Source of the DNA: Elusimicrobiota bacterium
Lineage (GTDB): Bacteria; Elusimicrobiota; Elusimicrobia; Elusimicrobiales; UBA9959
Length of the DNA stretch: 64,000 bases
Assembly: GCA_003450815.1 (NCBI GenBank)
Contig: DMES01000002.1
Span: forward strand, 5,591-69,590
Direction: 5' to 3'
Both the position numbers and the translations under genes were made by a program. A model generated the notes under the pieces. That model had not been told where the DNA came from, ran no database searches, and was given only the letters and a program-made list of their open reading frames with translations. Of this stretch, positions 1,394 to 41,936 are shown one piece after another. Numbering within the stretch: the first letter of the stretch is position 1; the number at the start of each line of letters is the position of its first letter.

Positions 1394-3589
1394 ATGAATT
1401 CCGATGATCCAAAAATAAAGAAAGCCGTGGTTCCCCTTGAAGGCGTGCATTGCGCCTCCTGTGTGGCGCGCATTGAAAAGAGCCTGGGCAATACCCGCGG
1501 TATAGACCGCGTTTCAGTGCACCTTCCTTCAAAAACAGCTTTCCTTTTTTATGACCCCGCTTTGATCACCCCGCTTCAGATAGAGGGGAAAATTGAAGAA
1601 CTCGGCTACAAGGCACTGGCTTTTTCAGAGTCAACGCTGAAGTCGGAAAGCGTGGCGGTGGAATCGCTCCTGCGCGAAAAAGACATGTTCCGCAACCGTT
1701 TCTGGCTTGCGGCCGGCGGAGCCTTGTTTTTGTTTTCAGGCGGTTTTTTTGATCTTTCCCCTTATACCGGCATGCCGGTTGCGGCTGTAGTCTGGCTTTG
1801 GGGAGGCCGGCATTTCCACCAGGGGATGTTTAAGTCTTTAAAGGCCAGAACAGCCAATATGGATACACTGGTTTCCATGAGTACCAGCGTTACTTTTTTT
1901 TACGGGGTGTTTGTCACTCTTTTCCCATCGGTCATCCCGGTTTCATATCACGCCCAGTGGCATGAAGTGGCTATGCTCATAGCTTTCATCAATCTGGGCC
2001 GCTGGCTTGAGGCCCGCTCAAAAAACAAGGCGGGAGAGGCGGTTTCGCGCCTTTTTTCAATTGTGCCCAAGTTCGCCCGCCGTCTTCGGGCGGGCGCCGA
2101 GGAAACCGTGCCGGTTTCAGATATAGTGCCCGGCGATATTGTCAGTCTGCGCCCCGGAGAGCAGGTTCCGGTGGACGGTGTGGTAAAGCGCGGCGCCTCG
2201 GCCCTTGATGAAAGCCTGCTCACCGGCGAGGTACTGCCGGTGGATAAGTTGCCCGGCTCAAAACTTTACGCCGGCACCATAAATAAAAACGGGGCTTTGG
2301 AATTTAAGGCCACCGGTGTCGGAGAGGATATGGTGCTGACAAAAATTATAAAAGCTGTGGCTGAGTCCCAGGCGGCAAAAAGTTCAATACAGCACCTAGT
2401 GGATAAAATTTCGGCCTGGTTCGTGCCGGCTGTTTTTTTTATAGCGGCTTTTTCAGCCGCCGTATGGCTGCGTTACGGAGAACCCTCCCAGGCGGTAAAT
2501 GTCTTTGCCGCGGTACTCGCGGTGGCCTGCCCCTGCGCAATGGGGCTTGCGGTTCCCATGGCGATAGTGGTAGGTTTCGGACGCGCGGCAGCTTCAGGTA
2601 TTCTTATAAGGAACCCTGATGTGCTTGAGCACGCGGCAAAAATTGACGCGGTTTTATTCGACAAGACGGGCACTTTGACCTCGGGGCTGCTTCGGGTAAT
2701 AAATGTAAAACCTAACGATATATCCGAAGGTTCATTCGTAGAATTGCTAGCGTCAGTGGAGGAAAAATCGGAACATCCGCTGGCGCACGCGGTGCGGCAA
2801 TTCGCCGCTGAGCGCGGCATAAAACCGGAGACGCCCGCATCCTTTGAGGCGCTACCCGGGAAAGGCGTAAGGGTTAAGTTGTCGGCGGGCTTGGCGCTTG
2901 CGGGATCCGCCAAGTGGCTTGCGTATAAAGGCGTGTCTATACCGGAGTCCGCGCTTGCCGCGCTTGATGGAACAGAAGGTTCCGCCCTGTTCTTGGCGTT
3001 AAACGGCCAGTTTAAGGGATATGCCGAGTTTGGCGACGCTTTACGACCGGAGGCCCCGGCCGTGCTTCGCGCGCTGAGCGATATGGGAATTGAACCGGTG
3101 CTGGTTTCCGGCGACCGCCAAAAAGCGGTAATGGCTGTGGCGCAAAAGCTTTCCATAAAAACCTTTTACTCTGAAATATTCCCTGAGGAAAAACGGCGGA
3201 TCTTGCTGCGCTACAAGGCCCTTGGCAGAAAGACGGCCATGGTCGGCGACGGATTTAACGACGCCGCGGCTCTTTCCGAGGCCGACATAGGAGTGGCCAT
3301 GCGTTCAGGCGCCGATATCGCCGTGCGTGCGAGCGATATAACCCTTATGAATAACGACCTTTCTTCCCTGGTGGAAGCGGTCAAGCTTTCGAGGGCCATT
3401 AAAAAAGTGATCAACCAGAATCTTTTCTGGGCTTTCGCGTACAATACCGTGCTTATCCCGCTTGCGGCCGGGGCGCTGTATCCTTCTTTGGGCTTTACCA
3501 TCCCGCCCTACTTTGCCGGCGGAGCCATGGCTTTAAGTTCGGTTTCTGTGGTAATTAATTCTCTCAGACTGAGAAAAATGAGAATATGA
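1394..3589 (+). CDS. copA: Copper-translocating P-type ATPase
   Basis: HMA domain GVHCASCVARIE, CPC motif (ACPCAMGLA), DKTGTLT phosphorylation site and GDGFNDAAAL hinge. ATG 1394 (MNSDDPK...) is preferred over the track start 1337, which overlaps the upstream gene. Confidence 0.9.
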   Translation: MNSDDPKIKKAVVPLEGVHCASCVARIEKSLGNTRGIDRVSVHLPSKTAFLFYDPALITPLQIEGKIEELGYKALAFSESTLKSESVAVESLLREKDMFRNRFWLAAGGALFLFSGGFFDLSPYTGMPVAAVVWLWGGRHFHQGMFKSLKARTANMDTLVSMSTSVTFFYGVFVTLFPSVIPVSYHAQWHEVAMLIAFINLGRWLEARSKNKAGEAVSRLFSIVPKFARRLRAGAEETVPVSDIVPGDIVSLRPGEQVPVDGVVKRGASALDESLLTGEVLPVDKLPGSKLYAGTINKNGALEFKATGVGEDMVLTKIIKAVAESQAAKSSIQHLVDKISAWFVPAVFFIAAFSAAVWLRYGEPSQAVNVFAAVLAVACPCAMGLAVPMAIVVGFGRAAASGILIRNPDVLEHAAKIDAVLFDKTGTLTSGLLRVINVKPNDISEGSFVELLASVEEKSEHPLAHAVRQFAAERGIKPETPASFEALPGKGVRVKLSAGLALAGSAKWLAYKGVSIPESALAALDGTEGSALFLALNGQFKGYAEFGDALRPEAPAVLRALSDMGIEPVLVSGDRQKAVMAVAQKLSIKTFYSEIFPEEKRRILLRYKALGRKTAMVGDGFNDAAALSEADIGVAMRSGADIAVRASDITLMNNDLSSLVEAVKLSRAIKKVINQNLFWAFAYNTVLIPLAAGALYPSLGFTIPPYFAGGAMALSSVSVVINSLRLRKMRI

Positions 3590-3649
3590 TTACACGGATT
3601 TAATACGGCGATTACACAGATTGTATCTTGATCCCAGAAACAAAAGTTG
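3588..3649. repeat. Left copy of GATTACAC-rich inverted repeat
   Basis: 3588-3632 is the reverse complement of 4664-4708 with 3 mismatches in 45 nt. Looser complementarity continues to 3649/4647. It starts on the copA stop codon. Confidence 0.85.
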
Positions 3650-3663
3650 GCGAAGGAGTATAT

Positions 3664-4074
3664 ATGAAAACAAAGTTCGGCTATACTTCGGGCCAGGCCC
3701 GCAGCGTGGGGAAAATAACACTGCCGAGTATTGAGGCCTGGGAAAACCAGTACAGACGGGATTACACTATAAAGATAGTCCACCCGGAATTTACCTCCGT
3801 CTGCCCGAAAACAGGTTTGCCTGATTTCGGCACGATTACTGTTGAATATATCCCGGGGAAAATGGTGCTGGAACTTAAGTCGCTTAAGTATTATTTCCTG
3901 CAATACCGAAATATCGGTATTTTTATGGAAAATATAGCGAACCGTGTTCTTGACGATGTGGTGCGGGCTATAAAGCCAAAAAGCTGTACGGTAACCGGAG
4001 AGTTCACCCCCAGAGGCGGCTTACGCTCAGTAATAACCGCACAATACAAGAGAAAACCCCAAAAAATCAGATAA
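3664..4074 (+). CDS. queF: NADPH-dependent 7-cyano-7-deazaguanine (preQ0) reductase, unimodular type
   Basis: PEFTSVCPKTGLPDFGTITVEY and the QueF motif ELKSLKYYF. ATG 3664 is preceded by a GAAGGAG RBS. Confidence 0.85.
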   Translation: MKTKFGYTSGQARSVGKITLPSIEAWENQYRRDYTIKIVHPEFTSVCPKTGLPDFGTITVEYIPGKMVLELKSLKYYFLQYRNIGIFMENIANRVLDDVVRAIKPKSCTVTGEFTPRGGLRSVITAQYKRKPQKIR

Positions 4075-4390: not shown

Positions 4391-4395
4391 CAGAG

Positions 4396-4445
4396 GCCCA
4401 GTTGGCGCAGCGGGTAGTGCCCTGGGAAAGTATGACACAGTCGGC
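4396..4445 (+). pseudogene. tRNA-Val-derived remnant (5' acceptor and D arm only)
   Basis: gcccagttggcgcagcgggtagtgc (4396-4420) matches the first 24 nt of the intact tRNA at 4480 with one indel and one mismatch. The tgggaaag that follows matches the 3' anticodon stem. No anticodon loop or T arm can be formed. Confidence 0.5.
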
Positions 4446-4479: not shown

Positions 4480-4554
4480 GCCCAGTTGGCGCAGCGGTAG
4501 CGCGTTCCCTTGACATGGGAAAGGTCACAGGTTCGATCCCTGTACTGGGCACCA
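4480..4554 (+). tRNA. tRNA-Val (anticodon GAC), CCA encoded
   Basis: Manual cloverleaf: acceptor GCCCAGT/ACTGGGC, D arm GCGC-AGCGGTA-GCGC, anticodon arm TTCCC-TTGACAT-GGGAA, variable AGGTC, T arm ACAGG-TTCGATC-CCTGT, then A-CCA. Confidence 0.9.
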
Positions 4555-4646: not shown

Positions 4647-4708
4647 CAGCTTTTGTTTCAGAAATCAAGATGCAATCTGTGTAATCGTCGTGTTAAATCC
4701 GTGTAATC
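4647..4708. repeat. Right (inverted) copy of the GATTACAC-rich repeat
   Basis: See 3588-3649. It ends 11 nt before the thrS ATG. Confidence 0.85.
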
Positions 4709-4719
4709 ATAATTCTTTT

Positions 4720-6514: not shown

Positions 6515-7093
6515 ATGCGCTTTAAATTCACAAAGCTGAAACTTAGAGGACTCGTTCTTGTGGAACCGGAAGTAGGCAGCGATGCGCGGGGCACATTTTC
6601 AGAAATATATAAAAGCTCCGTATTCAGCAAAGCCGGCATTAAAGAAACTTTTGTGCAGGATAACCGTTCCGTTTCACAAAAAGGCGTGTTGCGCGGCCTG
6701 CACTATCAGCGCCGACCGTTTGCGCAGGCAAAACTGGTGAGCTGCGGCAGGGGGCGTGTTTTAGATGTGGCCGTGGATTTGCGTCGTGGGTCAAAAACAT
6801 TCAAAAAGTGGTTCGGTGTGGAGCTTTCGGGCGAAAATCGCCTTTCGCTTTTTATCCCGGCGGGTTTTGCCCATGGTTTTCTGGCGCTTGAGGATGGTTC
6901 CGAACTCACTTATAAATGTTCAAAAGAGTACGCCCCCGCATATGATGCGGGCATAAGGTGGGATGACCCCGCGGTAGGGGTAAAATGGCCGGTTAAAAAA
7001 CCGCGGCTCTCCGAAAAAGACAGCAATTTGCCGGTTTTATCCGCCGTAAAATCCCGGCGGATTCGTCAAAAAGTATGGCGGAAAGAGCGCTAA
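6515..7093 (+). CDS. rfbC: dTDP-4-dehydrorhamnose 3,5-epimerase
   Basis: RmlC cupin motifs RGLHYQ, GRVLDVAVDLRRGSKTF and FIPAGFAHGF. Confidence 0.85.
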   Translation: MRFKFTKLKLRGLVLVEPEVGSDARGTFSEIYKSSVFSKAGIKETFVQDNRSVSQKGVLRGLHYQRRPFAQAKLVSCGRGRVLDVAVDLRRGSKTFKKWFGVELSGENRLSLFIPAGFAHGFLALEDGSELTYKCSKEYAPAYDAGIRWDDPAVGVKWPVKKPRLSEKDSNLPVLSAVKSRRIRQKVWRKER

Positions 7094-7172
7094 CCTGTGA
7101 GGTTAAGGTGAATGGCTAGAGGTATATCGGCTTCCTAAAAGCCTAACTGCCTACAAGCCTGGCCACCTGAAA
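7094..7172. repeat. Short-period (8-nt unit) two-armed repeat between rfbC and rfbB
   Basis: The right arm reads cctaaaag cctaactg cctacaag cctggcca cctgaaaa. The left arm carries the complementary ..agg-type units (gaggttaa ggtgaatg gctagagg). Confidence 0.6.
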
Positions 7173-7190
7173 AATCAGGAGTGTTTCATA

Positions 7191-8273
7191 ATGACTAAAA
7201 CCATGCTTGTTACAGGCGGTGCGGGGTTTATCGGCTCAAACTTTATTCGTTTTGTTTTTGAAAAAACCGGGTTTAAAGGGCGGATAGTAAATTTTGACAA
7301 ACTTACTTACGCCGGCCTGCGCGGGAATCTAAGCGATATAGAACGCCGCTTCGGCCCCAAACGGTATGTTTTTATAAAGGGAGACATTTGCAACTTTAAA
7401 AAAGTTAATGCGGTGATTAGAAAATACGATGTTTCAGTAATAGTCAATTTCGCGGCAGAGACCCATGTCGACCGCTCTATACACGGCCCGAGAGAGTTTA
7501 TAGAAACCAATATAACCGGCGCCTTTAACCTGCTTGAGTGCGCCCGGGCCAACTGGAAAAACAGGAAAGACGTCCGGTTCCACCACATCAGCACCGACGA
7601 GGTGTTTGGTTCGCTCGGGAAGACCGGCCGCTTCATGGAAACCACGCCTTACGATCCCAGAAGCCCGTATTCGGCCGCGAAAGCTTCATCCGATCACCTT
7701 GCGCGGGCTTATTTCCACACTTACGGCCTGCCGGTCACTATTTCCAACTGCTCTAATAATTACGGGCCTTACCAGCATCCGGAAAAACTCATCCCGCTGG
7801 CGCTTCTTAAAGCTGTTGACGGCGAGCCCATACCGGTTTATGGCGACGGTGGAAATACGCGCGACTGGCTGTTTGTGGAGGACCACTGCCGGGCCATCTG
7901 GGTTATTCTCAGGCGCGGCAGACCCGGAGAAACATATAATGTGGGCGGCAACTGTGAAAAAAGAAATCTTGAAACCTTGAGGGCGTTATTCCGGGCCCTT
8001 GAAAAACTTAAGCCCTCCGTTAAAAATCAGATGCTTAAAGGGTGCCGCTACGAAGAGCTGATAACTTTTGTGAAAGACCGCGCCGGGCATGATCGACGCT
8101 ATGCAATAGATTCCGGGAAAATCAAGAGAGAATTGGGCTGGAAACCTCGCTTCGGCTTTAGCGAAGGTCTTGAAGCGACTGTCGCCTGGTATCTGGCGCA
8201 TGGCAGCCGGCTGAAAAAAACCGTGGCCGCGTCCTATCGTGCCTGGCTGAAAAAGAACTATATTTTGCGCTGA
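7191..8273 (+). CDS. rfbB: dTDP-glucose 4,6-dehydratase
   Basis: GGAGFIGSNF Rossmann motif, STDEVFG, YSAAKASSDHL (YxxxK) and GETYNVGG. Confidence 0.9.
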   Translation: MTKTMLVTGGAGFIGSNFIRFVFEKTGFKGRIVNFDKLTYAGLRGNLSDIERRFGPKRYVFIKGDICNFKKVNAVIRKYDVSVIVNFAAETHVDRSIHGPREFIETNITGAFNLLECARANWKNRKDVRFHHISTDEVFGSLGKTGRFMETTPYDPRSPYSAAKASSDHLARAYFHTYGLPVTISNCSNNYGPYQHPEKLIPLALLKAVDGEPIPVYGDGGNTRDWLFVEDHCRAIWVILRRGRPGETYNVGGNCEKRNLETLRALFRALEKLKPSVKNQMLKGCRYEELITFVKDRAGHDRRYAIDSGKIKRELGWKPRFGFSEGLEATVAWYLAHGSRLKKTVAASYRAWLKKNYILR

Positions 8274-8313
8274 AAAAGTGTCTCCCCCTTAATTTGCTGA
8301 AATTTGATAATTT

Positions 8314-9810
8314 ATGACCAATAATATTTTCGGCGTAATACTGGCCGGCGGCGCGGGAACCCGCCTTTGGCCGCTTAGCCGAAAGCTTCTGCCAAAACAA
8401 TTTTTGCGCCTTGGAAAAGAAGACTCCCTTTTTGAGAAAACAGTATCAAGAATAACCCCTTTGACCGGTATAAATAATATAGTAGTGGTAACAAATAAAC
8501 TGCACGCCTTCGGCTCGGGCTACCATCAGCTGAAAAAACTGCGAATGCTGATAGAGCCGGAAGCCAGGAACACAGCTCCCGCCATAGGTCTCGCCTGCCT
8601 GTATCTGCTTAAAATATGCGGCAATGACCCAGTTGCCGTGGTGCTTCCCTCAGACCATATGATAGCCGACCGAAAGGCTTTTCTTAAAGTTTTGTCTGTG
8701 GCGGTCAAAGAAGCAGAAAAGGGGAAAATCGTTACGCTCGGCATAACGCCCGATTCCCCTGAAACCGGTTATGGATACATTAAGAGGGGGAAACCGATAA
8801 CAGTCACAAGTCACAAGTCACAAGTCACAAGTCACAAGCCAGAAGTCACAGGTCACAGGTCACAGGTTGTAAACGGGGATTTCTGCGGAGAGGTTTTTAG
8901 TGTTGATAAATTCGTGGAAAAGCCGGATTTTGAGACGGCCCGTAAATATCTGGAAAACGGCGGTTATTACTGGAACGCGGGGATGTTTGTCTTTAAGGCT
9001 TCGGTTATGCTTGAGGAATTTAAAAAATATCTGCCCGCGGCTTATAACCTGCTTGAAAAAATAAATAAAGAGGCTTTTGAAGGTGAAAAAGTAAATTATG
9101 ACGGCCTTGCCACCTTGTTCTCAAAAATGCCGGCCATTTCCATAGACTACGCGGTAATGGAGAAGTCCGATCGGGTTTGCGTTATCCCTTCAAAATTCGG
9201 CTGGAGCGATGTTGGCAGCTGGCATTATTTCTATAGCGCGCTTCCCAAGGACGGGAACGGTAATGTTAAATTAGGAGACGTCCTGGCCCTTGACGCGCGG
9301 GACAACCTGCTCTATTCCGGCAGCAGGCTTGTAACGGCCATAGGTGTTAAGAACCTGGCCATTATAGAAACCAGCGATGCTATTCTGGTTTCGGAGATCA
9401 ACCACTCGCAGAAAGTTAAAAAGATCGTAGATGAGCTAAAAAAACAGAACAGGCGCGAGCTGGACGAGCATATAACCGTGGAGCGCCCCTGGGGTTCTTA
9501 CACGGTGCTTGACGACTTGCCCAACTACAAAGTTAAAAAACTTAAAATTTATCCGGGTCACAAAATAAGCTATCAATACCACAACCGTCGTTCAGAGCAT
9601 TGGTTTGTTGTCAAGGGTTCGGCTGAGGTTACCTTGGACGGGAAAAAGATGAAAATACGGAAAAACCGTCATGTGGACATACCGCTTAAAGCCAGACATA
9701 TGCTCTTTAATCCGGGCCCGGCGGACCTGGAGATAATAGAGGTCCAGTCGGGCGCTTATTTCGGCGAAGACGATATTATCCGTTTAAACGATTTCTACGG
9801 CAGGAAGTAG
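8314..9810 (+). CDS. manC: Mannose-1-phosphate guanylyltransferase / mannose-6-phosphate isomerase (bifunctional type), carrying a repeat-encoded insertion
   Basis: ILAGGAGTRLWPLSR, ETGYGYI, EKPD...YWNAGMFVF and a C-terminal cupin (WGSYTVL..., HRRSEHWFVV). Confidence 0.85.
   Translation: MTNNIFGVILAGGAGTRLWPLSRKLLPKQFLRLGKEDSLFEKTVSRITPLTGINNIVVVTNKLHAFGSGYHQLKKLRMLIEPEARNTAPAIGLACLYLLKICGNDPVAVVLPSDHMIADRKAFLKVLSVAVKEAEKGKIVTLGITPDSPETGYGYIKRGKPITVTSHKSQVTSHKPEVTGHRSQVVNGDFCGEVFSVDKFVEKPDFETARKYLENGGYYWNAGMFVFKASVMLEEFKKYLPAAYNLLEKINKEAFEGEKVNYDGLATLFSKMPAISIDYAVMEKSDRVCVIPSKFGWSDVGSWHYFYSALPKDGNGNVKLGDVLALDARDNLLYSGSRLVTAIGVKNLAIIETSDAILVSEINHSQKVKKIVDELKKQNRRELDEHITVERPWGSYTVLDDLPNYKVKKLKIYPGHKISYQYHNRRSEHWFVVKGSAEVTLDGKKMKIRKNRHVDIPLKARHMLFNPGPADLEIIEVQSGAYFGEDDIIRLNDFYGRK
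8803..8872 (+). repeat. Heptanucleotide tandem repeat inside manC
   Basis: GTCACAA x5 perfect (8803-8837), then gccagaa, GTCACAG x3 and gttgtaa. It encodes ...VTSHKSQVTSHKPEVTGHRSQVV... Confidence 0.9.
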
Positions 9811-9931
9811 AGAAAGATGCGTCGAGGCAAGGATGTAAAGACGCAAGGAGGGGTGAAAGAAAATATTCTCAAGACTGCTTTGCATTTTAAGTCTAAGTTG
9901 CTTTGCGTCTAAATTGCTATGCATCTAAAGG
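9811..9931. repeat. Two-armed 8-nt-unit repeat element (GCATAGCA/ATTTAGAG family) between manC and gmd
   Basis: The forward arm 9819-9858 reads gcgtcgag gcaaggat gtaaagac gcaaggag. The reverse arm 9875-9930 reads ctgctttg cattttaa gtctaagt tgctttgc gtctaaat tgctatgc atctaaag. Confidence 0.75.
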
Positions 9932-9938
9932 TGAATGT

Positions 9939-11075
9939 ATGAAAAAGGCATTAATAACCGGCATAACCGGACAGGACGGGGCGTATCTGGCGGAACTACT
10001 TCTTAAAAAAGGCTATGAAGTGCATGGTGTCAGACGCCGTTCGTCCTCCTTTAATACGGCCAGGATAGACCATCTTTACAGCGACCCGCACAATAAAGGT
10101 GTGCGCCTTAAACTGTATTATGGAGATCTTACTGATTGTCCGGCTTTGGTTCATATCATGCAGAGAGTACGTCCCGATGAGGTTTATAATCTTGGCGCTC
10201 AGAGCCATGTGGCGGTAAGTTTTGAACAGCCGGAATATACCGGCAATGCCGACGCTCTTGGAACATTGCGCCTGCTGGAAACCATAAGGATACTGGGACT
10301 TGAAAAACATACAAAGTTCTATCAAGCTTCCACTTCTGAGCTGTTTGGGCAGGTACGCGAGACCCCTCAGAGCGAAAAAACGCCTTTTTATCCGCGCTCA
10401 CCTTACGGTGTGGCCAAGCTTTACGCCTACTGGATTACCGTCAATTACCGTGAATCCTATAATATGTTCGCTGCCAACGGTATACTCTTTAACCATGAGT
10501 CGCCACTCAGGGGCGCTACTTTTGTCACTCGCAAAATAACCATGGCGCTGCCGCGGATCCTTCTGGGCCGGCAAAACTGCCTGTATCTAGGCAACCTTGA
10601 TGCCAAGAGGGACTGGGGGCACGCAAGGGATTATGTTGAGGGTATGTGGCGTATGCTTCAGCAGAAGCGGCCTGGTGATTTCGTTCTTGCCACCGGAGAG
10701 CAGCATTCCGTAAGGGAGTTTGTGGATATAGCCGCCCGCAAAATGGGCATGGTTTTGGAATGGAAGGGCAGTGGGCCCGCTGAGCTTGGTATACTTAAAG
10801 CCTTTAAAAAACCATCGGAAGTTGAGTTGTGCCGTGGGGACATAAAAGCCAGGCTTGGAGATGTTTTGGTGCGGGTTGACCCGAAATATTATCGCCCCGC
10901 AGAAGTGGAAACGTTACTCGGAAATCCGGCTAAGGCTAAGAAAATACTTGGGTGGAAGCCAAAAACTTCCTTTGAAGACTTGGTTACTGAAATGGCCATG
11001 TCCGATCTGCGGGGTGCGCTTCGTGAATTGCATTTGGAAAAAGGCGGTTTTAAAGTGAAGAGCCGGGCAGAATAA
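9939..11075 (+). CDS. gmd: GDP-mannose 4,6-dehydratase (long form)
   Basis: [38 protein letters not shown] and [13 protein letters not shown] 9939 (MKKALITG) is used because the track start 9903 lies in the repeat. Confidence 0.9.
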
Positions 11076-11099
11076 TAGGCCGATTTAATATAGTGCAAC

Positions 11100-12053
11100 A
11101 TGAACAAAGCTTTAATAATAGGAGTAAGCGGCCAGGATGGGGCGTATCTGTCAAAATCACTCTTAGCAAAAGGCTATAGGGTCTTTGGTTCCTCAAGAGA
11201 GATTAATAACAATAATTTCACCAATCTAAAAACCCTTGATGTTTTTGACAAGGTTTCCGTGCTGCCGCTTAATCCCAGCAGGTTTTCCGAGGTTTTCGCG
11301 ATTGTTAAAAATGTCGTACCGGATGAAATTTATAATCTGGCCGGGCAAAGTTCGGTCAGCCAGTCTTTTTTGCGGCCGCTTGAGACCATAGAAAGCATAG
11401 CCTCTTCCACCGTCAATCTGCTAGAGGCGGTTCGCATTTCGGGGGCTCAGATCCGCTTTTACTCCAGCGTTTCCAGCGACTGTTTCGGAGGCACTGACTT
11501 TCACGCCGACGAAAGCACCTCTTTTAATCCCAAAAGCCCTTATGCAATAGCTAAAGCAATGGCTTTCTGGGCAACCAAAAATTACAGGCTGGCGTATGGT
11601 ATTTTTGCCTGTTCAGGCATACTTTTTAATCATGAGTCTCCCCTCCGGAACGAAAATTTTGTGACAGGTAAAATAATCAATACCGCACTAAGAATAAAAA
11701 ATGGCTCAAAGGAAAGGCTTAAGCTGGGCGATATTTCAGTCATAAGAGATTGGGGCTGGGCTGAAGAATTTGTGGAAAGCATGTGGCTGGTGCTTCAGCA
11801 GAAAAAACCTGATGATTTCGTGATTGCGACAGGTGAAAGTAATAGCCTTGAGGCACTGGTGCGCGAAGCTTTTCTCGCTTTCGGCCTTAATTGGAAAGAC
11901 CATGTGGATTTTGACGCTTCTTTTTTACGGCCGTTGGACATAAAGGCAGAATACGCGAACCCAGCCAAGGCTTCTGAAATACTCGGCTGGAAGGCGAAGT
12001 TTAAAATGCGAGATGTGGTGCATGCGTGGGGCAAGGCGTTGGGAAATATATAA
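11100..12053 (+). CDS. Second GDP-mannose 4,6-dehydratase-family protein (short form, variant active-site triad)
   Basis: [40 protein letters not shown] and SPYAIAKAMAFW (YxxxK kept). However, it has SSVSSDCFG where gmd has ASTSELFG. Confidence 0.6.
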   Translation: MNKALIIGVSGQDGAYLSKSLLAKGYRVFGSSREINNNNFTNLKTLDVFDKVSVLPLNPSRFSEVFAIVKNVVPDEIYNLAGQSSVSQSFLRPLETIESIASSTVNLLEAVRISGAQIRFYSSVSSDCFGGTDFHADESTSFNPKSPYAIAKAMAFWATKNYRLAYGIFACSGILFNHESPLRNENFVTGKIINTALRIKNGSKERLKLGDISVIRDWGWAEEFVESMWLVLQQKKPDDFVIATGESNSLEALVREAFLAFGLNWKDHVDFDASFLRPLDIKAEYANPAKASEILGWKAKFKMRDVVHAWGKALGNI

Positions 12054-12068
12054 TTGCGGAGGCTCCTT

Positions 12069-12851
12069 ATGAAAGTCGTAATTCTGGCGGGCGGTTTGGG
12101 TACCAGGCTTTCGGAAGAAACGGACCTGAAACCCAAACCTATGGTTGAAATAGGCCAGCACCCGATACTTTGGCACATAATGAAACTGTATTCCAGTTAC
12201 GGCTTCAACGATTTTGTGCTTTGTCTTGGCTACAAAGGGTATCTGCTGAAAGAATATTTCGCCAACTACTTCCTGCACCAGGCCGATGTTACCATAGATT
12301 TGAGAAATAATAAGTTGAAAGTGCATCACAGGAAGGCAGAGCCATGGAAAGTGACCCTTGTGGATACCGGCCTTAACACTATGACCGGAGGGCGCATAAA
12401 AAGGATAGCAAAGTACGTAGGCAACGAAACCTTCATGCTAACTTATGGCGATGGTGTGGCCGATGTAAACATGAAAAAGCTGGTGGAATTTCACAAAAAG
12501 CACAAAAGGAAGGCCACTATAACCGCAGTGCAGCCGATCGGCAGGTTTGGCGCCATTGACATAGGCCAGGCGGGAGAGGCCGTGTCTTTCCAGGAAAAAC
12601 CGCTGGGCGACGGCGCCTGGATAAACGGCGGTTTTTTTGTGCTTGAGCCGGAAGTGTTCAAATATATACGCGACGACGCTTCAATCTGGGAGCGTCAGCC
12701 GCTTGAAACCCTGACCAGAGAAAAACAGCTTTCTGTCTACAGGCATAAAGGCTTTTGGAAATGCATGGATACGCTTCGAGATAAGCAGGAGTTGGAAAAT
12801 TTTTGGCGCTCCGGAAATGCCCCATGGAAAGTCTGGAAGGAAGGGCAATGA
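12069..12851 (+). CDS. rfbF: Glucose-1-phosphate cytidylyltransferase
   Basis: MKVVILAGGLGTRLSEETDLKPKPMVEIG..ILWHIMK. GGAGG RBS before ATG 12069. Confidence 0.85.
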   Translation: MKVVILAGGLGTRLSEETDLKPKPMVEIGQHPILWHIMKLYSSYGFNDFVLCLGYKGYLLKEYFANYFLHQADVTIDLRNNKLKVHHRKAEPWKVTLVDTGLNTMTGGRIKRIAKYVGNETFMLTYGDGVADVNMKKLVEFHKKHKRKATITAVQPIGRFGAIDIGQAGEAVSFQEKPLGDGAWINGGFFVLEPEVFKYIRDDASIWERQPLETLTREKQLSVYRHKGFWKCMDTLRDKQELENFWRSGNAPWKVWKEGQ

Positions 12852-13954
12852 AAGACAGGTTTTGGGCCGGGAAAAAGGTGTTCCTTACGGGCAATACAGG
12901 CTTTAAGGGAAGCTGGTTGTCGCTGTGGCTAAATAGTATGGGCGCCAAAGTTTATGGCTATGCCCTGAAGCCGCCTACCAGGCCCAGCCTTTTTGATCTT
13001 TGTTCCATCGGCAAAATAACAAACACAACCATCGCCGATATCCGCGACGCTGGCCGCCTTAAAAAGGCGCTTAAAACGGCCTTGCCCGATATAGTTATCC
13101 ATATGGCGGCTCAGCCGCTGGTACGAGAATCTTACCGTGCGCCGGCGGAAACCTACGATACCAACGTGATGGGGACTGTGAACCTGTTGGAGGCTGTGCG
13201 CGCCTGCGGCAGAGTGAGAGCGGTGGTAAATGTCACCACCGACAAGTGCTATGAGAACAAGGAACGTCCGATTGCCTATCGCGAAGGCGAGCCCCTTGGT
13301 GGTTATGACCCGTATTCCTCCAGCAAGGCCTGCTCCGAGCTGGTCACTTCCGCCTACCGCAACTCATTTTTCAACCCCATGTGCTATTCTCTTAACTCTA
13401 AACTCTTAACTCCCAACTCACAACTTTCGTCTCACCATGTGGCTTTAGCTTCGGCCCGCGCGGGCAATGTGATAGGAGGGGGAGACTGGGCGGACGACAG
13501 GCTTATACCGGATATAATACGGGCTGCTTTGAGCGGCAAAAAAGTCCTGATAAGGAACCCCCGCGCAATAAGGCCATGGCAGCATGTGCTTGAGCCTTTG
13601 AGCGGATACCTGCTTCTGGCGCAGAAACTTTACCGGAAGGGCCCCGCCTATGCCCAGGCCTGGAATTTCGGCCCGGTGGAGTCAGACGCTAAAGATGTGG
13701 AATGGATAGTAAAACGCATGTTCCAAAAGTGGAGTGTCGCTCCCGGCTATGTTTTGGACTCATCCCGCCATCCGCATGAGGCCCATTACCTTAAACTGGA
13801 TTCTTCAAAGGCGCGGCGCGCGCTGCTCTGGCGTCCGCGCTGGAATATCGGCCAGGCGATAGACCGGGTTATTGATTGGACAGAAGCCTATACGCGCAAA
13901 GAAGACATGCGAGGGGTCTGTTTAAGGCAGATAGAAGGATATGAAGAGGCATAG
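12848..13954 (+). CDS. rfbG: CDP-glucose 4,6-dehydratase, carrying a repeat-encoded insertion
   Basis: KKVFLTGNTGFKGSWLSLWL, YDPYSSSKACSELV and RAGNVIGGGDW. ATG 12848 overlaps the rfbF stop (ATGA). Confidence 0.85.
   Translation: MKDRFWAGKKVFLTGNTGFKGSWLSLWLNSMGAKVYGYALKPPTRPSLFDLCSIGKITNTTIADIRDAGRLKKALKTALPDIVIHMAAQPLVRESYRAPAETYDTNVMGTVNLLEAVRACGRVRAVVNVTTDKCYENKERPIAYREGEPLGGYDPYSSSKACSELVTSAYRNSFFNPMCYSLNSKLLTPNSQLSSHHVALASARAGNVIGGGDWADDRLIPDIIRAALSGKKVLIRNPRAIRPWQHVLEPLSGYLLLAQKLYRKGPAYAQAWNFGPVESDAKDVEWIVKRMFQKWSVAPGYVLDSSRHPHEAHYLKLDSSKARRALLWRPRWNIGQAIDRVIDWTEAYTRKEDMRGVCLRQIEGYEEA
13389..13437 (+). repeat. Heptamer-periodic tract inside rfbG
   Basis: ctcttaa ctctaaa ctcttaa ctcccaa ctcacaa ctttcgt ctcacca encodes ...SLNSKLLTPNSQLSSHH... 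Confidence 0.7.
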
Positions 13955-14031
13955 CAGTTTAGATGTAAAGCAATTTAGCGGCAGGGTCATTTAGAGGCAC
14001 AGCAGTTTGGAGGCACGAAGGCGTAGAAGAC
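13944..14031. repeat. 8-nt-unit repeat array (GCATAGCA/ATTTAGAG family) overlapping the rfbG stop
   Basis: From 13949 there are 10 consecutive units: gcatagca gtttagat gtaaagca atttagcg gcagggtc atttagag gcacagca gtttggag gcacgaag gcgtagaa. 13944-13970 is the inverted partner of 14459-14485. Confidence 0.8.
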
Positions 14032-14091
14032 ATATCTTTTAGCGGTTAAATTTCTGGACTACCGAATTGTTAAGTGTTGAGCGGAGGGGGT

Positions 14092-14451
14092 ATGGCTGGA
14101 TTATATAAAGGTCTTAAAGTTTGGGAGAACAGTGTAAACCTCATAAAAAATATATATTCGGTAGCGGAAAAGCTGCCTAAAAGCGAGGAATATAACCTCA
14201 AGCAGCAATTAAAAAGGGCGGTAGTTTCGGTAGCGTTAAACATAGCAGAAGGAAAAGGGCGAAAATCAGCGAAAGAATTTTCCAATTTTCTAAATATATC
14301 GTTCGGATCTTTATGTGAAGTGGAAGCTATATTAACTTTGTGCCAAGAATTGAACTATCTTTCCAATCTGGAAGATACTTTCTCGCGCATAGAAGTGTTA
14401 TTAAAAATGCTCTCTTCTTTAAAAAATAGTTTGGCTGAGAAACAGTCTTAA
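14092..14451 (+). CDS. Four-helix-bundle protein (family formerly called 23S rRNA intervening-sequence protein)
   Basis: LKVWENSVNL...LPKSEEYNLKQQLKRAVVSVALNIAEGKGRKSAKEFSNFLNISFGSLCEVE is the characteristic pattern. GGAGGGGG RBS before ATG 14092. Confidence 0.75.
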   Translation: MAGLYKGLKVWENSVNLIKNIYSVAEKLPKSEEYNLKQQLKRAVVSVALNIAEGKGRKSAKEFSNFLNISFGSLCEVEAILTLCQELNYLSNLEDTFSRIEVLLKMLSSLKNSLAEKQS

Positions 14452-14456
14452 ATGTT

Positions 14457-14495
14457 GTCTTTACATCTAAATTGCTTTGCCTCTTTGCATCTATC
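14457..14495. repeat. Reverse-orientation 8-nt-unit repeat (same family)
   Basis: The sequence is gtctttacatctaaattgctttgcctctttgcatctatc. 14459-14485 is the reverse complement of 13944-13970 with 25/27 identity. Confidence 0.8.
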
Positions 14496-14501
14496 ACTAT
14501 C

Positions 14502-15245
14502 ATGGAAATAATCTTCTTAGGCACCAATGGCTGGTACGACACTTCCACCGGCAATACCGTCTGCGCCCTTGTAAAGACAAAGCGCTTTGATATTGTGTTG
14601 GACGCGGGTAACGGTCTGACCAAACTTGACCGCTATTGCGACGGTTCCAAACCGGTCTATCTTTTCCTCAGCCATTTCCACCTGGACCACATAATAGGTC
14701 TGCACGCCCTGTTGAAATTCAGGTTTCGCAAAGGGCTCACTATATTCGCGCAAAAGGGCGCGCGACGCGTATTGAAAACATTCGTAAACGCCCCTTTTAC
14801 CATGCCTCTGGATAAACTGCCTTATTCCGTAAAAATAGTTGAACTTCCCGACGAAGCCCCAAAGTTGCCTTTTAAGGCTGAAAGTCTGCCGCTTGAGCAT
14901 TCCGACCCGGTGCTTGGCTTGCGTCTGCGACTTGACGGTAAAACCATTGTCTATTGCACCGATACAGGCCATTGTGCAAACGCTCTTAAGCTGGCGAAAA
15001 GGGCGGATCTGCTTATCTCCGAATGCTCCCATCTTTCGGGCGAGGAGAACCCCGGTTGGCCTCATTTTAATCCAGAAACGGCCGCCAGACTGGCGCTTGT
15101 GGCGGGGGTAAAGAATCTCGTGCTTACTCATTTCGCTGCGGACAGATATTCTACCATGCGCCGCAGGACCGCGGCGTTGCGCGTGGCTCGTAGGATATTT
15201 CCCGGCTCCGCCGCCGCAAAAGACGGAATGCGGATGAGACTGTAG
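14502..15245 (+). CDS. MBL-fold metallo-hydrolase (RNase Z / ElaC-like short form)
   Basis: HxHxDH motif (LSHFHLDHIIGL), later D/H ligands (CTDTGH, LTHF) and N-terminal IIFLGTNG. Confidence 0.7.
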   Translation: MEIIFLGTNGWYDTSTGNTVCALVKTKRFDIVLDAGNGLTKLDRYCDGSKPVYLFLSHFHLDHIIGLHALLKFRFRKGLTIFAQKGARRVLKTFVNAPFTMPLDKLPYSVKIVELPDEAPKLPFKAESLPLEHSDPVLGLRLRLDGKTIVYCTDTGHCANALKLAKRADLLISECSHLSGEENPGWPHFNPETAARLALVAGVKNLVLTHFAADRYSTMRRRTAALRVARRIFPGSAAAKDGMRMRL

Positions 15246-15265
15246 GAATCCGTTACTATGCAGGT

Positions 15266-15368
15266 AGACAGAATGCAGAAGTCAGAATACAGAATAGCCG
15301 CTCTCAATAAGCTTCCGATAGCTTTTGCCGCTTTCTGGCTTCTGAATTCTGACTCCTGACTTCCTGAA
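15266..15368. repeat. Two-armed heptamer repeat element
   Basis: The left arm reads cagaatg cagaagt cagaata cagaata. The right arm reads ttctggc ttctgaa ttctgac tcctgac, so the arms are complementary. Confidence 0.75.
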
Positions 15369-15387
15369 TAACCATACAAGGACCCCA

Positions 15388-16758
15388 ATGACCCGTGAAG
15401 AAATTCTAAACGCTGTAAGGGCCTACCATTCGGTTGCTTTTTCCGTTAAGCCTTTCAATAGGGAAAAGGACACTGTTCGCTACGCCGGAAGGGTGTTTGA
15501 CGAAAAAGAACTTGTGGCTCTGGTGGACTCGTCGCTTGATTTTTGGCTGACAGAAGGACGTTACGCCGAGAGTTTCGCCGAAAAGATCTCGGATTTTCTT
15601 GAAGTTGAAAATGTAATCCTGACAAATTCCGGCTCGTCCGCCAACCTGCTCGCGCTTTCGGCTCTGACATCAAAAAAACTAGGCAAAAAAAGACTTGTGC
15701 CCGGCGATGAGGTTATCACTGTCGCCGCGGGATTTCCTGCGACGGTGACTCCGATTCTGCAGAACGGTCTGATTCCGGTTTTTGTGGATGTGGAAATACC
15801 CACCTACAATGTAAATATTGAAGCCCTTAAAAAAGCTGTTTCACCTAAAACCCGCGCTGTCTTTCTAGCTCATACACTCGGCAACCCTTTTAATGTTGAA
15901 GAGGTAATAAAAATCGTTAAAGAACATGACCTGTGGCTTATAGAGGACAACTGCGACGCGCTCGGCAGCAGATATAGATGCGTAGAGGCGCAGCAATTTG
16001 GAGGCATAGGAACGTCCCCTCCGCGCCTCCACGCCTCCACGCCTCCACGCTTCCAGTACACCGGCACATTCGGGCATATCGCCACAATTTCTTTTTATCC
16101 AGCCCACCATATTACCACTGGTGAAGGCGGTGCCGTGGTGACCAATAACGAGCAATTGTCCCAGATCATACGCTCGTTCAGGGATTGGGGACGCGACTGC
16201 TACTGCGCCGGCGGGGAAAACAATACCTGCGGCAAGCGTTTCTCGCAGCAATTCGGTACGCTTCCCCCCGGATACGACCATAAATATGTTTATTCCGAGC
16301 TGGGCTACAACCTGAAAATGACCGATATGCAGGCGGCTATAGGTTCCGCACAAATGGACAAGCTTGAAATGTTCGGCGAGAAAAGACGCGGGAATTTCAA
16401 GCGTTACCAGAAGATGTTTTCCGCATACTCGCGCTTCCTTCTCCTTCCGGAGGCTACTCCTGGCTCGGATCCCTCCTGGTTCACCTATATTGTGTCCGTC
16501 AGGGACAACGCCCCCTTCAGTCGCAATGACCTGGTGACATTCCTGAACGAGCGCCGGATAGAAACAAGAAACATCTTCGCCGGCAATATGATTCGCCAGC
16601 CGGCTTTTATTGGCAGGCCCTGCCGTGTGCATGGGGAACTGAGCGTTACCGACTTCATCATGAACAATACTTTTTTCCTTGGAACTTATCCCGGTATGAC
16701 CGGCGATATGTTCGCCTATGTTGAAGACTGTGTCGCCGAATTTATGGGACGGTTTTAA
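15388..16758 (+). CDS. rfbH: CDP-4-dehydro-6-deoxyglucose 3-dehydrase (E1, PMP/[2Fe-2S] enzyme), carrying a repeat-encoded insertion
   Basis: GDEVITVAAGFPATVTPILQNGLIPVFVDV, FYPAHHITTGEGG (His in place of the aminotransferase Lys), DWGRDCYCAGGENNTCGKRF (Cys cluster) and SDPSWF. Confidence 0.85.
   Translation: MTREEILNAVRAYHSVAFSVKPFNREKDTVRYAGRVFDEKELVALVDSSLDFWLTEGRYAESFAEKISDFLEVENVILTNSGSSANLLALSALTSKKLGKKRLVPGDEVITVAAGFPATVTPILQNGLIPVFVDVEIPTYNVNIEALKKAVSPKTRAVFLAHTLGNPFNVEEVIKIVKEHDLWLIEDNCDALGSRYRCVEAQQFGGIGTSPPRLHASTPPRFQYTGTFGHIATISFYPAHHITTGEGGAVVTNNEQLSQIIRSFRDWGRDCYCAGGENNTCGKRFSQQFGTLPPGYDHKYVYSELGYNLKMTDMQAAIGSAQMDKLEMFGEKRRGNFKRYQKMFSAYSRFLLLPEATPGSDPSWFTYIVSVRDNAPFSRNDLVTFLNERRIETRNIFAGNMIRQPAFIGRPCRVHGELSVTDFIMNNTFFLGTYPGMTGDMFAYVEDCVAEFMGRF
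15971..16056 (+). repeat. 8-nt-unit palindromic repeat inserted in frame in rfbH
   Basis: The first arm gatatagat gcgtagag gcgcagca atttggag gcatagga belongs to the intergenic family. The second arm tccgcgcc tccacgcc tccacgcc tccacgct is largely complementary. It encodes RCVEAQQFGGIGTSPPRLHASTPPRFQ. Confidence 0.8.
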
Positions 16759-16842
16759 AGGCATAGATGCGTAGAGGCATAGCAGTTTAGAGGCATGGAG
16801 GCATAGCAATTTAGATGCGTAGAGGCGTAGCAATTTAGAGGT
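16759..16842. repeat. 8-nt-unit repeat array (10 units) after rfbH
   Basis: From 16761 the units are gcatagat gcgtagag gcatagca gtttagag gcatggag gcatagca atttagat gcgtagag gcgtagca atttagag. Confidence 0.85.
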
Positions 16843-16850
16843 GTTCTAAT

Positions 16851-17540
16851 ATGGCTATTGTCAAGAAGTACAGATCCGAGGTCGTCGCCGTTGAAAATCC
16901 TGTCTCCGACATCAGGACCGTTACCCTGCGGCCTCTTGAGAAGGCTTACAAGTACAATCCCGGCCAGTTCCTTCACCTGGCGCTTGATGAATTTGACCCG
17001 GCCAGACCATGGCCCGAATCGCGCTGCTTTTCCATGCAGAGCTCTCCGGATCAGGAGACGATTAAAATAACCTTCGCGGAAAAGGGGAAATTCACCGCGC
17101 GCATGGCGCGCGAACTCGCTCCGGGAAAAGTTATTTATGTCAAACTGCCCTACGGGGATCTGTTTTCAATAGCGCATAACACGCAAAAAACCGTCTTTGT
17201 AGCGGGTGGGACCGGTATTACTCCTTTTCTTTCGCTGTTTACCTCTCCGGAATTCGCTGCATATCAAAATCCCAGTCTTTATTTCGGGCTGCGGAGTCTA
17301 TCGCATCACCTTTATGCGGCCGACCTGGAAAAAGCCCTGGGTGTCAATCCCTCTTTTTCCGTCAAGCTGCAGAATGAGGAAAAAGACGGACGGCTTGATA
17401 TTCAGAAGATCTTCGGCGAAAATGGCCCCTCCGCCGTTTATTTCATTTCGGGGCCTCCTGTCATGATTAAAAGTTTTAAATCATTCCTGGCCTCCAACGG
17501 CGTCCCGCCTGAAAACATCAGAACGGACGATTGGGAATAG
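16851..17540 (+). CDS. FNR-family FAD/NAD(P)H oxidoreductase; candidate E3 reductase partner of RfbH but without a [2Fe-2S] ferredoxin domain
   Basis: RCFSMQS (RxYS-type flavin motif) and VFVAGGTGITPFLS (NAD(P)H-binding motif). It is 229 aa and has no N- or C-terminal Cys-rich ferredoxin module. Confidence 0.6.
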   Translation: MAIVKKYRSEVVAVENPVSDIRTVTLRPLEKAYKYNPGQFLHLALDEFDPARPWPESRCFSMQSSPDQETIKITFAEKGKFTARMARELAPGKVIYVKLPYGDLFSIAHNTQKTVFVAGGTGITPFLSLFTSPEFAAYQNPSLYFGLRSLSHHLYAADLEKALGVNPSFSVKLQNEEKDGRLDIQKIFGENGPSAVYFISGPPVMIKSFKSFLASNGVPPENIRTDDWE

Positions 17541-17555
17541 TATTGCCGGCAACAC

Positions 17556-17650
17556 TGTCCCCCTTGCCCGCTTAATCCCGCATCATTCCCGCCTGTGGCG
17601 GGAAGTAAGCTTTACCCCTTCAGCGGCTTCCACGCGGATGGCGGTGGGGA
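17556..17650. repeat. Looser two-armed repeat / hairpin region
   Basis: cccgc recurs 3 times at 10-11 nt spacing, facing gcgg(g) 4 times. The central perfect hairpin is ttcccgcc-tgt-ggcgggaa. Confidence 0.45.
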
Positions 17651-35614: not shown

Positions 35615-35748
35615 TGTAGTCGCAGAGCTTGCTCTGCCCAAAAAATCCAGCGGTAGGGATCTGCCGTGCTATTTGGCGGATACTCTGCCGGACAAGTCTA
35701 TCTATGCGTTCCGAACGCAAATTAGGCAAAGCAAGCTTTGCGACTACA
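35615..35748. repeat. Hairpin/TIR repeat family B, copy 1 (134 bp)
   Basis: The left end tgtagtcgcagagcttgctctgccc and right end ggcaaagcaagctttgcgactaca are inverted repeats. Each end is itself a palindrome. Confidence 0.85.
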
Positions 35749-41849: not shown

Positions 41850-41903
41850 TGTAGTTGCAGAGTTTACTCTGCCCAAAAAGGCAAAGCAAGCTTTGCCGCT
41901 ACA
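41850..41903. repeat. Hairpin/TIR repeat family B, copy 2 (minimal, the two ends abut)
   Basis: tgtagttgcagagtttactctgcccaaaaaggcaaagcaagctttgccgctaca. Confidence 0.85.
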
Positions 41904-41936
41904 AGGCTATGTCAGTGCCTATCTGCCGAAGGTGTT

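Follow-up and report, generated by a model that had tools for sequence, protein, structure and literature searches.

Tandem 7- and 8-nt repeat arrays in an Elusimicrobiota rfb cluster and their link to intervening-sequence protein genes

The rfb segment and its IVP cassette

The window, a stretch of 64,000 nt from a 93-kb contig of an Elusimicrobiota metagenome-assembled genome (MAG; assembly GCA_003450815.1, contig DMES01000002.1, positions 5,591–69,590; NCBI proteins HAH30708.1 and HAH30710.1), carries tandem arrays of 7- and 8-nt units, many of them in a gene segment (7094–17650) whose genes all lie on the + strand, to which all array coordinates below refer. The genes are rfbC (6515–7093), rfbB (7191–8273), manC (8314–9810), gmd (9939–11075), a GDP-sugar reductase gene (11100–12053), rfbF (12069–12851), rfbG (12848–13954), a gene for a four-helix-bundle protein (14092–14451), one for a metallo-β-lactamase (MBL)-fold, RNase Z-like protein (14502–15245), rfbH (15388–16758), a flavin reductase gene (16851–17540) and a NeuB-like gene starting at 17739. 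A JGI contig and a Logan contig match the window sequence exactly, and since three independent assemblies agree, the arrays are not an assembly artefact; a look-up of exact proteins for strain comparison returned only identical copies of the window. The Logan contig (SRR6482189_52) starts at 8810, inside an (AGTCACA)9 array, so that assembly broke at a heptamer array, as short-read assemblies are liable to do at arrays of this sort.

A first-pass annotation of the segment had described short-period repeats at nearly every gene junction and quoted ten consecutive 8-mers at 16761–16840, which are exact on direct reading. Repeats of 7, 8 and 16 nt lie far above a shuffled background in both Tandem Repeats Finder (TRF) and autocorrelation. 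TRF arrays with periods of 7, 8, 14–16, 21 or 24 number 15 at a score of at least 30 (3.3 in shuffles), 10 at a score of at least 36 (0.73) and seven at a score of at least 45 (0.33). Period 7 is found at 8802–8864 (9.0 copies), 13389–13419, 15268–15296, 15333–15369 and 60170–60226 (8.1 copies), period 16 at 9891–9929 and 13945–14016, period 8 at 16018–16055, and period 16/24 at 16759–16841. Sliding autocorrelation exceeds the maximum of 20 dinucleotide shuffles at lags 7, 8, 14, 16, 21 and 24, and at no other lag from 4 to 24. The 16-mer GCATAGCAATTTAGAG occurs 10 times with up to three mismatches against 0.72 expected, all copies lying within 9.8–16.9 kb, and the TAG-8/16 family is present at five window sites. 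The arrays fill every spacer of the segment longer than about 45 nt except the last one, so that five of 11 junctions have a clear site and a sixth a weak one, fewer than had been claimed. Most of the sites listed earlier stand, with 7094–7172 weak and 17556–17650 rejected, while arrays inside manC (8802–8864) and rfbG (13389–13430) and at 60170–60226 and 61594–61625 had been overlooked. As the annotation stated, this is not CRISPR, the units being contiguous and without spacers.

The annotation had also missed that the four-helix-bundle gene is enclosed by inverted arrays. It lies in the one full cassette of the window (13944–14495), between rfbG and the MBL gene. The 5′ purine-rich arm (13944–14028) comprises about ten forward 8-nt units with a 16-nt super-unit, GCATAGCARTTTAGAK (TRF period 16, 4.5 copies), and encodes the last residues of rfbG together with its TAG stop. 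The gene itself (+ strand) follows a strong GGAGGGGG ribosome-binding site and matches PF05635 (Pfam, 7.4e-32) and TIGR02436 (2.3e-31); its Avd-like product, HAH30708.1, is named a four helix bundle protein at NCBI and is here termed IVP, for intervening-sequence protein. Among solved structures, its nearest homologue is that of Xanthomonas XCC0516, a pentamer (PDB 2GSC, E 3.8e-18). The 3′ pyrimidine-rich arm (14457–14495) consists of the same 8/16-nt units in reverse complement and stops 6 nt short of the MBL gene. Complementarity between the arms is 93% (13944–13970 versus 14459–14485), and the flank inverted-repeat score is 44 (z 12.3). In the predicted RNA fold of 13936–14500, minimum free energy and centroid structures alike enclose the open reading frame (ORF) in a terminal stem of about 37 bp (z −3.6). 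Two related species (L129 and L135) keep this arrangement, and one base pair shows a compensatory change from T-A to C-G.

PF05635 genes in other lineages

PF05635 is the family of the 23S rRNA intervening-sequence protein (S23p); its Avd-like members are very common and have solved structures. To our knowledge, these proteins have no known role outside diversity-generating retroelements (DGRs). Genes of the family were examined at 22 loci in Elusimicrobiota, Endomicrobia, Smithella, Paceibacterota, Gemmatirosa and cyanobacteria, representing about 20 genomic contexts. The two-armed architecture is specific to the IVP genes. At 20 of the 22 loci the flanks have inverted-repeat scores of 28–63 (z 4.6–20.9) with arms made of tandem 7- or 8-nt units, compared with one of 103 control genes. 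The controls are 53 other window genes (all scoring 20 or less), 19 neighbors of IVP genes (18 scoring 18 or less, one scoring 28) and 31 further genes from a 50-kb stretch of a Nostoc punctiforme plasmid (20 or less). The two IVP genes in the same 50 kb score 42 and 58, and six of its seven TRF period-7 arrays scoring at least 40 are located at these two genes, one of them inside.

PF05635 genes are typically wedged within conserved gene pairs, namely kinase/sigma54 regulator, dnaX/recR, cas6/cas4, nrdB/nrdA, parA/parB and Wzc/CpsB. Wedging was seen at L136, L146, L151, L155, L161, L162, L168 and L170, in some cases on the opposite strand, and many PF05635 genes lie in polysaccharide clusters. 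The flanking units are 8-mers between a sensor kinase and a sigma54 regulator gene (L136) and between dnaX and recR of Endomicrobia (L146), CTNNGAAG between glycosyltransferase and Fic genes (L148–150), NGAAGATT in Smithella (L151–154), TTAGANGC between Wzc and CpsB of Paceibacterota (L155–160), GGGCAGGA in Gemmatirosa (L166) and (AGGTGAC)n between cas6 and cas4 (L162). Cyanobacterial plasmids carry (TAGGGAG)n (L161), (GGGTGTR)n (L164, L169), (GGGAAAA)n (L167, L170), (GGGAACA)n (L171), (GGCAGAG)n (L172) and (AGTCAGR)n (L173, L174).

Unit and period both go with the clade of the protein, even where genomic context and order differ. Units are 8 nt long in the clade 54–75% identical to the window IVP and 7 nt long in the cyanobacterial clades; IVP pairs with a common unit include L165 and L172 (80% identical, GGCAGAG), L163 and L168 (74%, GCTAAAA) and L170 and L171 (72%, GGGAANA). 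From this co-variation it follows that element and protein travel together, or else that the unit is read by the protein. Of 20 IVP loci, 18 begin with the purine-rich arm, as do about 10 of 11 ORF-less pairs. Reading the opposite strand of a hairpin leaves this arm order unchanged, so the polarity belongs to the element itself.

Arrays that lack an ORF are built from units that also flank IVP genes; examples are the 16-mer family, in the window and in Elusimicrobia GWA2_51_34, and other units shared across phyla. The link between heptamer-type arrays and the intervening-sequence protein family is strong and, as far as found, undescribed; no paper linking PF05635 to heptamer arrays was found among those available, which does not prove such a link unpublished. 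For the repeats, the link offers a candidate binding protein, and for the PF05635 protein a candidate ligand. It is probable, though by a good distance not assured, that the arrays go back to a selfish hairpin cassette of the intervening-sequence (IVS) type, some being its ends and others solo copies or derivatives without the ORF.

Arrays without an IVP gene

The manC–gmd junction contains an ORF-less two-armed array (9815–9930) in which a degenerate purine-rich arm (9815–9858) faces a reverse arm of the 16-mer family (9875–9930), the last unit leaving an AAGGTG ribosome-binding site for gmd. The fold of 9811–9938 reaches only z −1.7; the array is clearly a member of the 16-mer family, and the sister species has a homologous element at this junction (L129, 5611–5706, z −2.7). 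At the MBL–rfbH junction, an ORF-less two-armed heptamer array (15266–15369) has CAGAATG CAGAAGT CAGAATA CAGAATA facing TTCTGGC TTCTGAA TTCTGAC TCCTGAC, with 83% complementarity. Its hairpin (15255–15375) has a z of −4.1, none of 200 shuffles being as stable; with the fold of the insert in rfbH described below (z −2.6), it agrees with the earlier proposal that opposed arms can form long imperfect hairpins. Its unit, AGTCAGR, also flanks IVP genes in Nostoc and Aulosira (L173, L174), and a 16-nt identity, TCTGACTCCTGACTTC, is shared by window positions 15349–15364 and the IVP flanks of Nostoc L173 and Aulosira.

Directly 3′ of the rfbH stop lies a one-armed array of ten 8-mers with 16/24-nt super-units (16760–16841), which presents TAG in all three frames and whose last unit, TTTAGAGGTG, is the ribosome-binding site of the reductase gene. 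The rfbC–rfbB junction (7094–7172) holds a weak, probably decayed two-armed 8-mer element (TRF score 33, fold z −1.9, autocorrelation not above shuffles) with its purine-rich arm first. The sequence at 17556–17650, to which no strand is assigned, is an irregular GC-rich imperfect hairpin with no periodicity above shuffles, a fold z of −1.4 and the pyrimidine-rich arm first; its lack of periodicity and its reversed arm order exclude it from the family. Intrinsic terminators were rejected as an explanation, as U-tracts are lacking and terminator-like sites are not enriched (15 observed, 14.6 in shuffles); none falls in any array except a 5-bp stem at 7166–7179, on the edge of the weak 7094–7172 site. 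Arrays of TRAP-, CsrA- or Shine–Dalgarno-like motifs were dropped since only some unit families are GAG- or GGA-rich.

The arrays had been thought to have no coding capacity of their own. This needs amending, as three are translated in frame and two supply the stop codon of the upstream gene; translation follows from gaps relative to crystal-structure homologues, which fall at the manC, rfbG and rfbH arrays (about +21–25, +13 and about +24 aa, respectively). In manC, (AGTCACA)9 (8802–8864, 91% matches) encodes a (VTSHKSQ)3-like insert of 21 aa at which the alignment to PDB 2X5S breaks. The site has (GCCATAN)4 instead in the sister species L129 and nothing in the relative L128; the AGTCACA unit is also found at L006 679 and 5078 and at L129 17612. 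The rfbG insert (13389–13430) is made of the heptamers CTCTTAA CTCTAAA CTCTTAA CTCCCAA CTCACAA, matches a 13-residue gap versus PDB 1WVG and 1RKX, and has unit variants that keep TAA out of the reading frame; L129 has a homologous array and L128 none. The rfbH insert (15971–16056) is a two-armed 8-mer array in a loop, with a 5′ arm of GCGTAGAG GCGCAGCA ATTTGGAG GCATAGGA and a 3′ arm of (CCTCCACG)4, and the PDB 3BCX alignment breaks at query residues 197–224. RfbH homologues are nearly all 431–440 aa long, and Elusimicrobiota proteins 80–85% identical lack the insert. The same site holds different arrays in two relatives, a longer two-armed 8/16-mer array in L129 and, in L127, whose RfbH is 85% identical, a third version with (GAAGGTTN)4 facing (TCAAACCC)4 (z −5.1).

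Stop codons are supplied by the 5′ arm of the IVP cassette, which provides the rfbG TAG at 13952–13954, and by a perfect (GCTGAAG)8 array (60170–60226, 100% matches) that begins inside a priming glycosyltransferase gene and gives it its TGA, the gene ending at 60188. Units related to GCTGAAG are present at the end of an O-antigen ligase gene (61594–61625). An extra loop of about 12 aa in GAPDH (61967–63019) relative to solved structures, at 62270–62310, is not a nucleotide tandem array. The perfect runs are expansions of the slippage type, and the arrays obey rules of tolerance, lying after stops or in frame and avoiding stop codons within reading frames. They add peptide repeats to conserved enzymes and create or move stop codons and ribosome-binding sites, and annotators of MAGs should expect them.

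Presence and absence of the arrays are lineage-specific. Elusimicrobia GWA2_51_34 (L129) is about 79% identical to the window in nucleotide sequence and fully syntenic; almost all of its junctions hold arrays, but these frequently belong to a different unit family or fill junctions where the window has none. Its rfbC–rfbB junction carries a GCCATAG-family element and its rfbH–reductase junction a different two-armed array (z −6.4). In L127, the latter junction is 1 nt and the MBL–rfbH junction 11 nt long, and a REP-like hairpin stands in place of the absent four-helix-bundle gene. L128 lacks the inserts and has arrays of its own, including GGGAATC; both L127 and L128 are without the IVP gene and most arrays. 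GGGAATC/GGGGATC heptamers, the unit of Xanthomonas arrays, occur at L128 300–320 and 2088–2108, one copy intergenic and one within an rfbB-like coding sequence.

These comparisons bear on the idea that the arrays are selected intercistronic RNA elements that stabilise or process mRNA or uncouple translation, the IVP link being incidental. Such a role fits their position directly 3′ of stops, where they spare or provide ribosome-binding sites, the fold z values down to −6.4 and the conservation of the manC–gmd and IVP-flank hairpins between species. As the sole explanation, which the first-pass annotation had offered, it is contradicted by the in-frame copies in three enzymes, by one-armed arrays that cannot form a hairpin, by absence in relatives at 80–85% amino-acid identity, and by orthologous junctions that are empty in close relatives or hold unrelated units. 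The missing U-tracts and unenriched terminators, and G-U mismatches that are not clearly above A-C, also count against it, and we regard it as unlikely.

A second GWA2_51_34 contig (L006), found by a DNA-pattern scan, encodes a glycine-cleavage operon whose junctions carry unit families of the window (GTCACAA, GCCATAA, CCACTAA and the 16-mer). The arrays are therefore not specific to glycan genes; they are genome-wide, lineage-specific and fast-turning-over. The same operon speaks against another earlier suggestion, that the arrays are recombination substrates which shuffle glycan-gene cassettes. Many IVP cassettes and arrays do lie in polysaccharide clusters, and gene order around the MBL gene differs between relatives, but IVP flanks also occur in dnaX–recR, cas, nrd and par operons, and shuffling appears extremely improbable.

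AGTCACA, GCCATAG, TAGTGG and TAG-16 recur on the two GWA2_51_34 contigs and in the window, and identical units and composite sequences of 19–31 nt recur at unlinked loci and in species only about 79% identical. Slippage alone does not account for such a return of a few unit families in unlinked positions and in different species. The arrays might otherwise be read as plain long-unit microsatellites arising from a lineage-specific slippage bias towards 7–8-nt steps, with no element and no protein involved. The perfect runs (GCTGAAG)8, (AGTCACA)5 and, in L127, (TCAAACCC)4 do point to recent slippage, array lengths differ between species, and both heptamer over-representation and a polymerase-footprint hypothesis have been published (PMC4692102). 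Slippage, however, gives growth and neither origin nor dispersal; it leaves unexplained the recurrence of units and composites across species and phyla, and the complementary inverted pairs of fixed polarity tied to one gene family. The microsatellite explanation is given a low probability.

The arrays could also be elements akin to miniature inverted-repeat transposable elements, moved by an unseen transposase (RAYT or IS200/IS605-type) with the IVP as passenger or target. Dispersed composite elements, such as TTACGGCCTATGGCAATAGCCGTATCTAAAA occurring four times in 28 kb of the sister genome, the variable presence at orthologous junctions and a GTAG-head REP-like family in the window that suggests a hairpin-mobilising activity are compatible with this. 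The window and related loci, however, contain no transposase, no signature of terminal inverted repeats with target-site duplication was found, and co-variation of unit and period with IVP clade is unexpected for a passenger gene, which makes such transposition very unlikely. Of four matches from a genome-wide scan with GAGGCATAGCARTTTAGA, the one in Elusimicrobia GWA2_51_34 was real and three were isolated chance hits, located upstream of Nostoc infC and in one unknown MAG. Among the matches listed from a metagenome-wide scan with the permissive pattern GCATAGCARTTTAGA, none was a new family member by local tandem context.

Probable origin of the arrays and known systems

Under the derivation from an IVS-type cassette favored here, the full form would be a purine-rich 7–8-nt array, a PF05635 IVP gene and a complementary pyrimidine-rich array. 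The arrays at 9815–9930 and 15266–15369, the rfbH insert and probably 7094–7172 would be miniature two-armed copies, and those at 16760–16841, 8802–8864, 13389–13430 and 60170–60226 one-armed arrays. The ORF-less arrays would derive from or depend on IVP cassettes, and the IVP probably recognises the repeat unit. Copies may settle where they do least harm, after a stop codon with the ribosome-binding site spared or supplied, or in frame in surface loops, and once settled may grow, shrink and homogenise by slippage. By analogy with rRNA IVSs, the arms could pair in RNA as stems of 25–45 bp, probable RNase III substrates at which the polycistronic transcript would be cut or punctuated.

Several observations weigh against this derivation. 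Close homologues of the window IVP all occupy the same syntenic slot, which implies vertical descent, and mobility would be without a mechanism, since the cassette has no linked nuclease, recombinase or reverse transcriptase and the IVP no catalytic motif. Inverted arms are present and two junctions are empty in L127 (11 and 1 nt), but no clean empty site was found, and comparison of filled and empty junctions defined neither a target-site duplication nor a precise boundary. About 120 kb of Elusimicrobiota sequence contains one IVP gene and dozens of arrays, so ORF-less forms greatly outnumber full ones, and most arrays have no IVP gene nearby; searches of the window, L006, L127 and L128 with a hidden Markov model of 22 IVP proteins turned up neither additional IVP genes nor remnants of any. 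The GCCATAG, CTCTTAA and GCTGAAG heptamer families were not seen beside any IVP gene examined. The 22 loci are top hits plus plasmids and not a genome-wide census, and the two exceptions among them have long arrays in direct rather than inverted orientation (L168) and non-complementary arrays beside an insertion sequence (L165). Efficient cutting by RNase III at the hairpin within rfbH would destroy the very message that carries it, and G-U and A-C mismatches in the stems (21:14) give no clear signal of selection at the RNA level.

The closest precedent for the cassette is the Coxiella 23S rRNA IVS, a 428-nt selfish element with an S23p ORF and a 28-bp terminal inverted-repeat stem cut by RNase III (PMC4990558). 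Upstream of the ORF it carries an AGAAGA tract and two to three tandem GACAGAT heptamers whose copy number varies between strains, and IVSs with an S23p ORF are known in Coxiella and Leptospira alongside ORF-less versions (PMC4990558). The window cassette likewise has a PF05635 ORF within a stem of complementary termini and tandem short repeats beside the ORF. It differs in lying between operon protein genes, in either orientation, and in having explicit 7–8-nt arrays as arms; ORF-less copies are many here and some are translated, and excision by RNase III is known for rRNA IVSs only. The only Rfam match in the window is a tRNA; no rRNA is present, so the typical IVS location in 23S helix 9, 25 or 45 is not found here.

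A bridge to heptamer repeats is provided by Xanthomonas, where GGGAATC repeat #15 overlaps the start codon of XCC0516 (supplementary table, PMC4692102), the IVP homologue of PDB 2GSC; the paper itself drew no connection with PF05635 genes. Its GGGAATC arrays number 186 sites, 89–93% intergenic and near the upstream stop codon, with 70–75 convergent inverted pairs per genome; like the Nostoc/Anabaena arrays (GGGGAYT), they are dispersed tandem heptamers between co-directional genes, some intragenic, and their length and sequence are strongly variable between relatives (PMC4692102). The window arrays share the dispersed tandem form, the mostly intergenic location near the upstream stop and the inverted pairs, and GGGAATC itself is present in L128. 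They differ from the Xanthomonas and Nostoc heptamers in having several unit families of both 7 and 8 nt with 16/24-nt super-units, in not being prone to G-quadruplex formation and in their Elusimicrobiota host.

It is tempting to speculate, with somewhat less than even confidence, that the short tandemly repeated repetitive (STRR) sequences of cyanobacteria, GGGAATC and the window arrays are termini and ORF-less progeny of one ancient cross-phylum class whose signature is PF05635 and of which rRNA IVSs are a subset. In such a class, each IVP clade might recognise its own unit, perhaps one per subunit of the pentamer, and by analogy with Avd in DGRs the IVP might act with a nucleic-acid enzyme. 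On that unifying view, rRNA intervening sequences would represent one setting of a more general element.

STRR repeats of heterocystous cyanobacteria were reportedly described by Mazel and colleagues in 1990. Heptamer repeats have been known since that year and used in strain fingerprinting, their origin and function unexplained. The first-pass annotation had named STRR-type repeats as an analogue, and these are indeed the closest published ones. At least three head-to-tail 7-nt units are found at all five window sites with TRF period 7, and units are dispersed over unlinked loci; the 8/16/24 period of the 16-mer family falls outside the strict definition, as does a host that is an Elusimicrobiota MAG and not a heterocystous cyanobacterium. 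Rickettsia palindromic elements (RPEs) are said, following Ogata and colleagues in 2000, to lie in frame in conserved protein genes and to be translated as extra loops, and reportedly are non-tandem, 100–150 nt long, limited to one genus and associated with no protein gene. The window arrays resemble RPEs in their in-frame translation as loops and differ in being tandem and linked to a protein gene.

TAACTGA arrays are known from Beggiatoaceae, Cyanobacteria and Bacteroidetes, a patchy cross-phylum spread that suggests horizontal transfer; their sets are mostly of single orientation just upstream of start codons, with one inverted pair reported (PMC4679880). The window arrays share intergenic tandem sets of a short, stop-codon-bearing unit, but here inverted pairs are common. 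The earlier statement that the repeats match no described family is not supported: Rfam searches at the gathering threshold and at E ≤ 1 gave no match for the arrays, but their kind has been described (PMC4692102, PMC4679880). The arrays are a multi-family 7/8-nt form of a described but unexplained kind of bacterial repeat.

Repetitive extragenic palindromes (REPs) and their mosaic and hairpin-doublet forms (BIMEs and REPINs) are extragenic hairpin doublets, non-autonomous copies linked to a repeat-flanked master gene, RAYT, which encodes an HUH enzyme; the units are 20–40-nt palindromes with a GTAG head (PMC3116915). Many hairpin copies and one repeat-flanked gene are common to both systems. 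Nevertheless, the REP/BIME analogy drawn by the first-pass annotation is poor because the units here are 7–8 nt long and non-palindromic, no array having the 20–40-nt GTAG-head palindrome, and the IVP has no known catalytic activity.

The GTAG-head feature is present in a separate REP-like hairpin family, TGTAGTYGCAGAGYTTRCTCTGCC-CAAAAA-GGCAAAGCAAGCTTTGCSRCTACA, at 41855–41910 and 35615–35748. Further sites of this family are 61697–61827, 60315–60338 and L127 214–277; in two copies the arms are parted by inserts of about 80 nt, and the L127 copy occupies the rfbG–MBL junction, the site of the IVP cassette in the window. The MBL-fold gene, whose RNase Z-like match is below the family cut-off, is constant in the sugar clusters of the window, L129, L135, L127 and L128, varies in position and is nearly always flanked on both sides by arrays or hairpins.

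A 62-nt inverted repeat with 90% identity and GATTACACRG units (3585–3646 and 4650–4711) brackets queF (3628–4074) and a tRNA gene (4480–4551), with a partial tRNA-like copy at about 4395–4440; the bounded stretch could be an integrated or invertible segment. At 55193–55262, a direct 24-nt repeat, GGCCATARGCCCTGATACGGCACA, is separated by GCCATAGG-type units and is related to the GCCATAG dispersed element, whose core (TTACGGCCTATGGCAATAGCCGTATCTAAAA) has at least four copies in 28 kb of GWA2_51_34. Lastly, a 26-nt sequence, GGCCAGCGACAGGCCAGAGTCACTGC, is 96% conserved between the non-orthologous spacers at window 61772–61797 and L129 13851–13876, and may be a small dispersed element or a small RNA.

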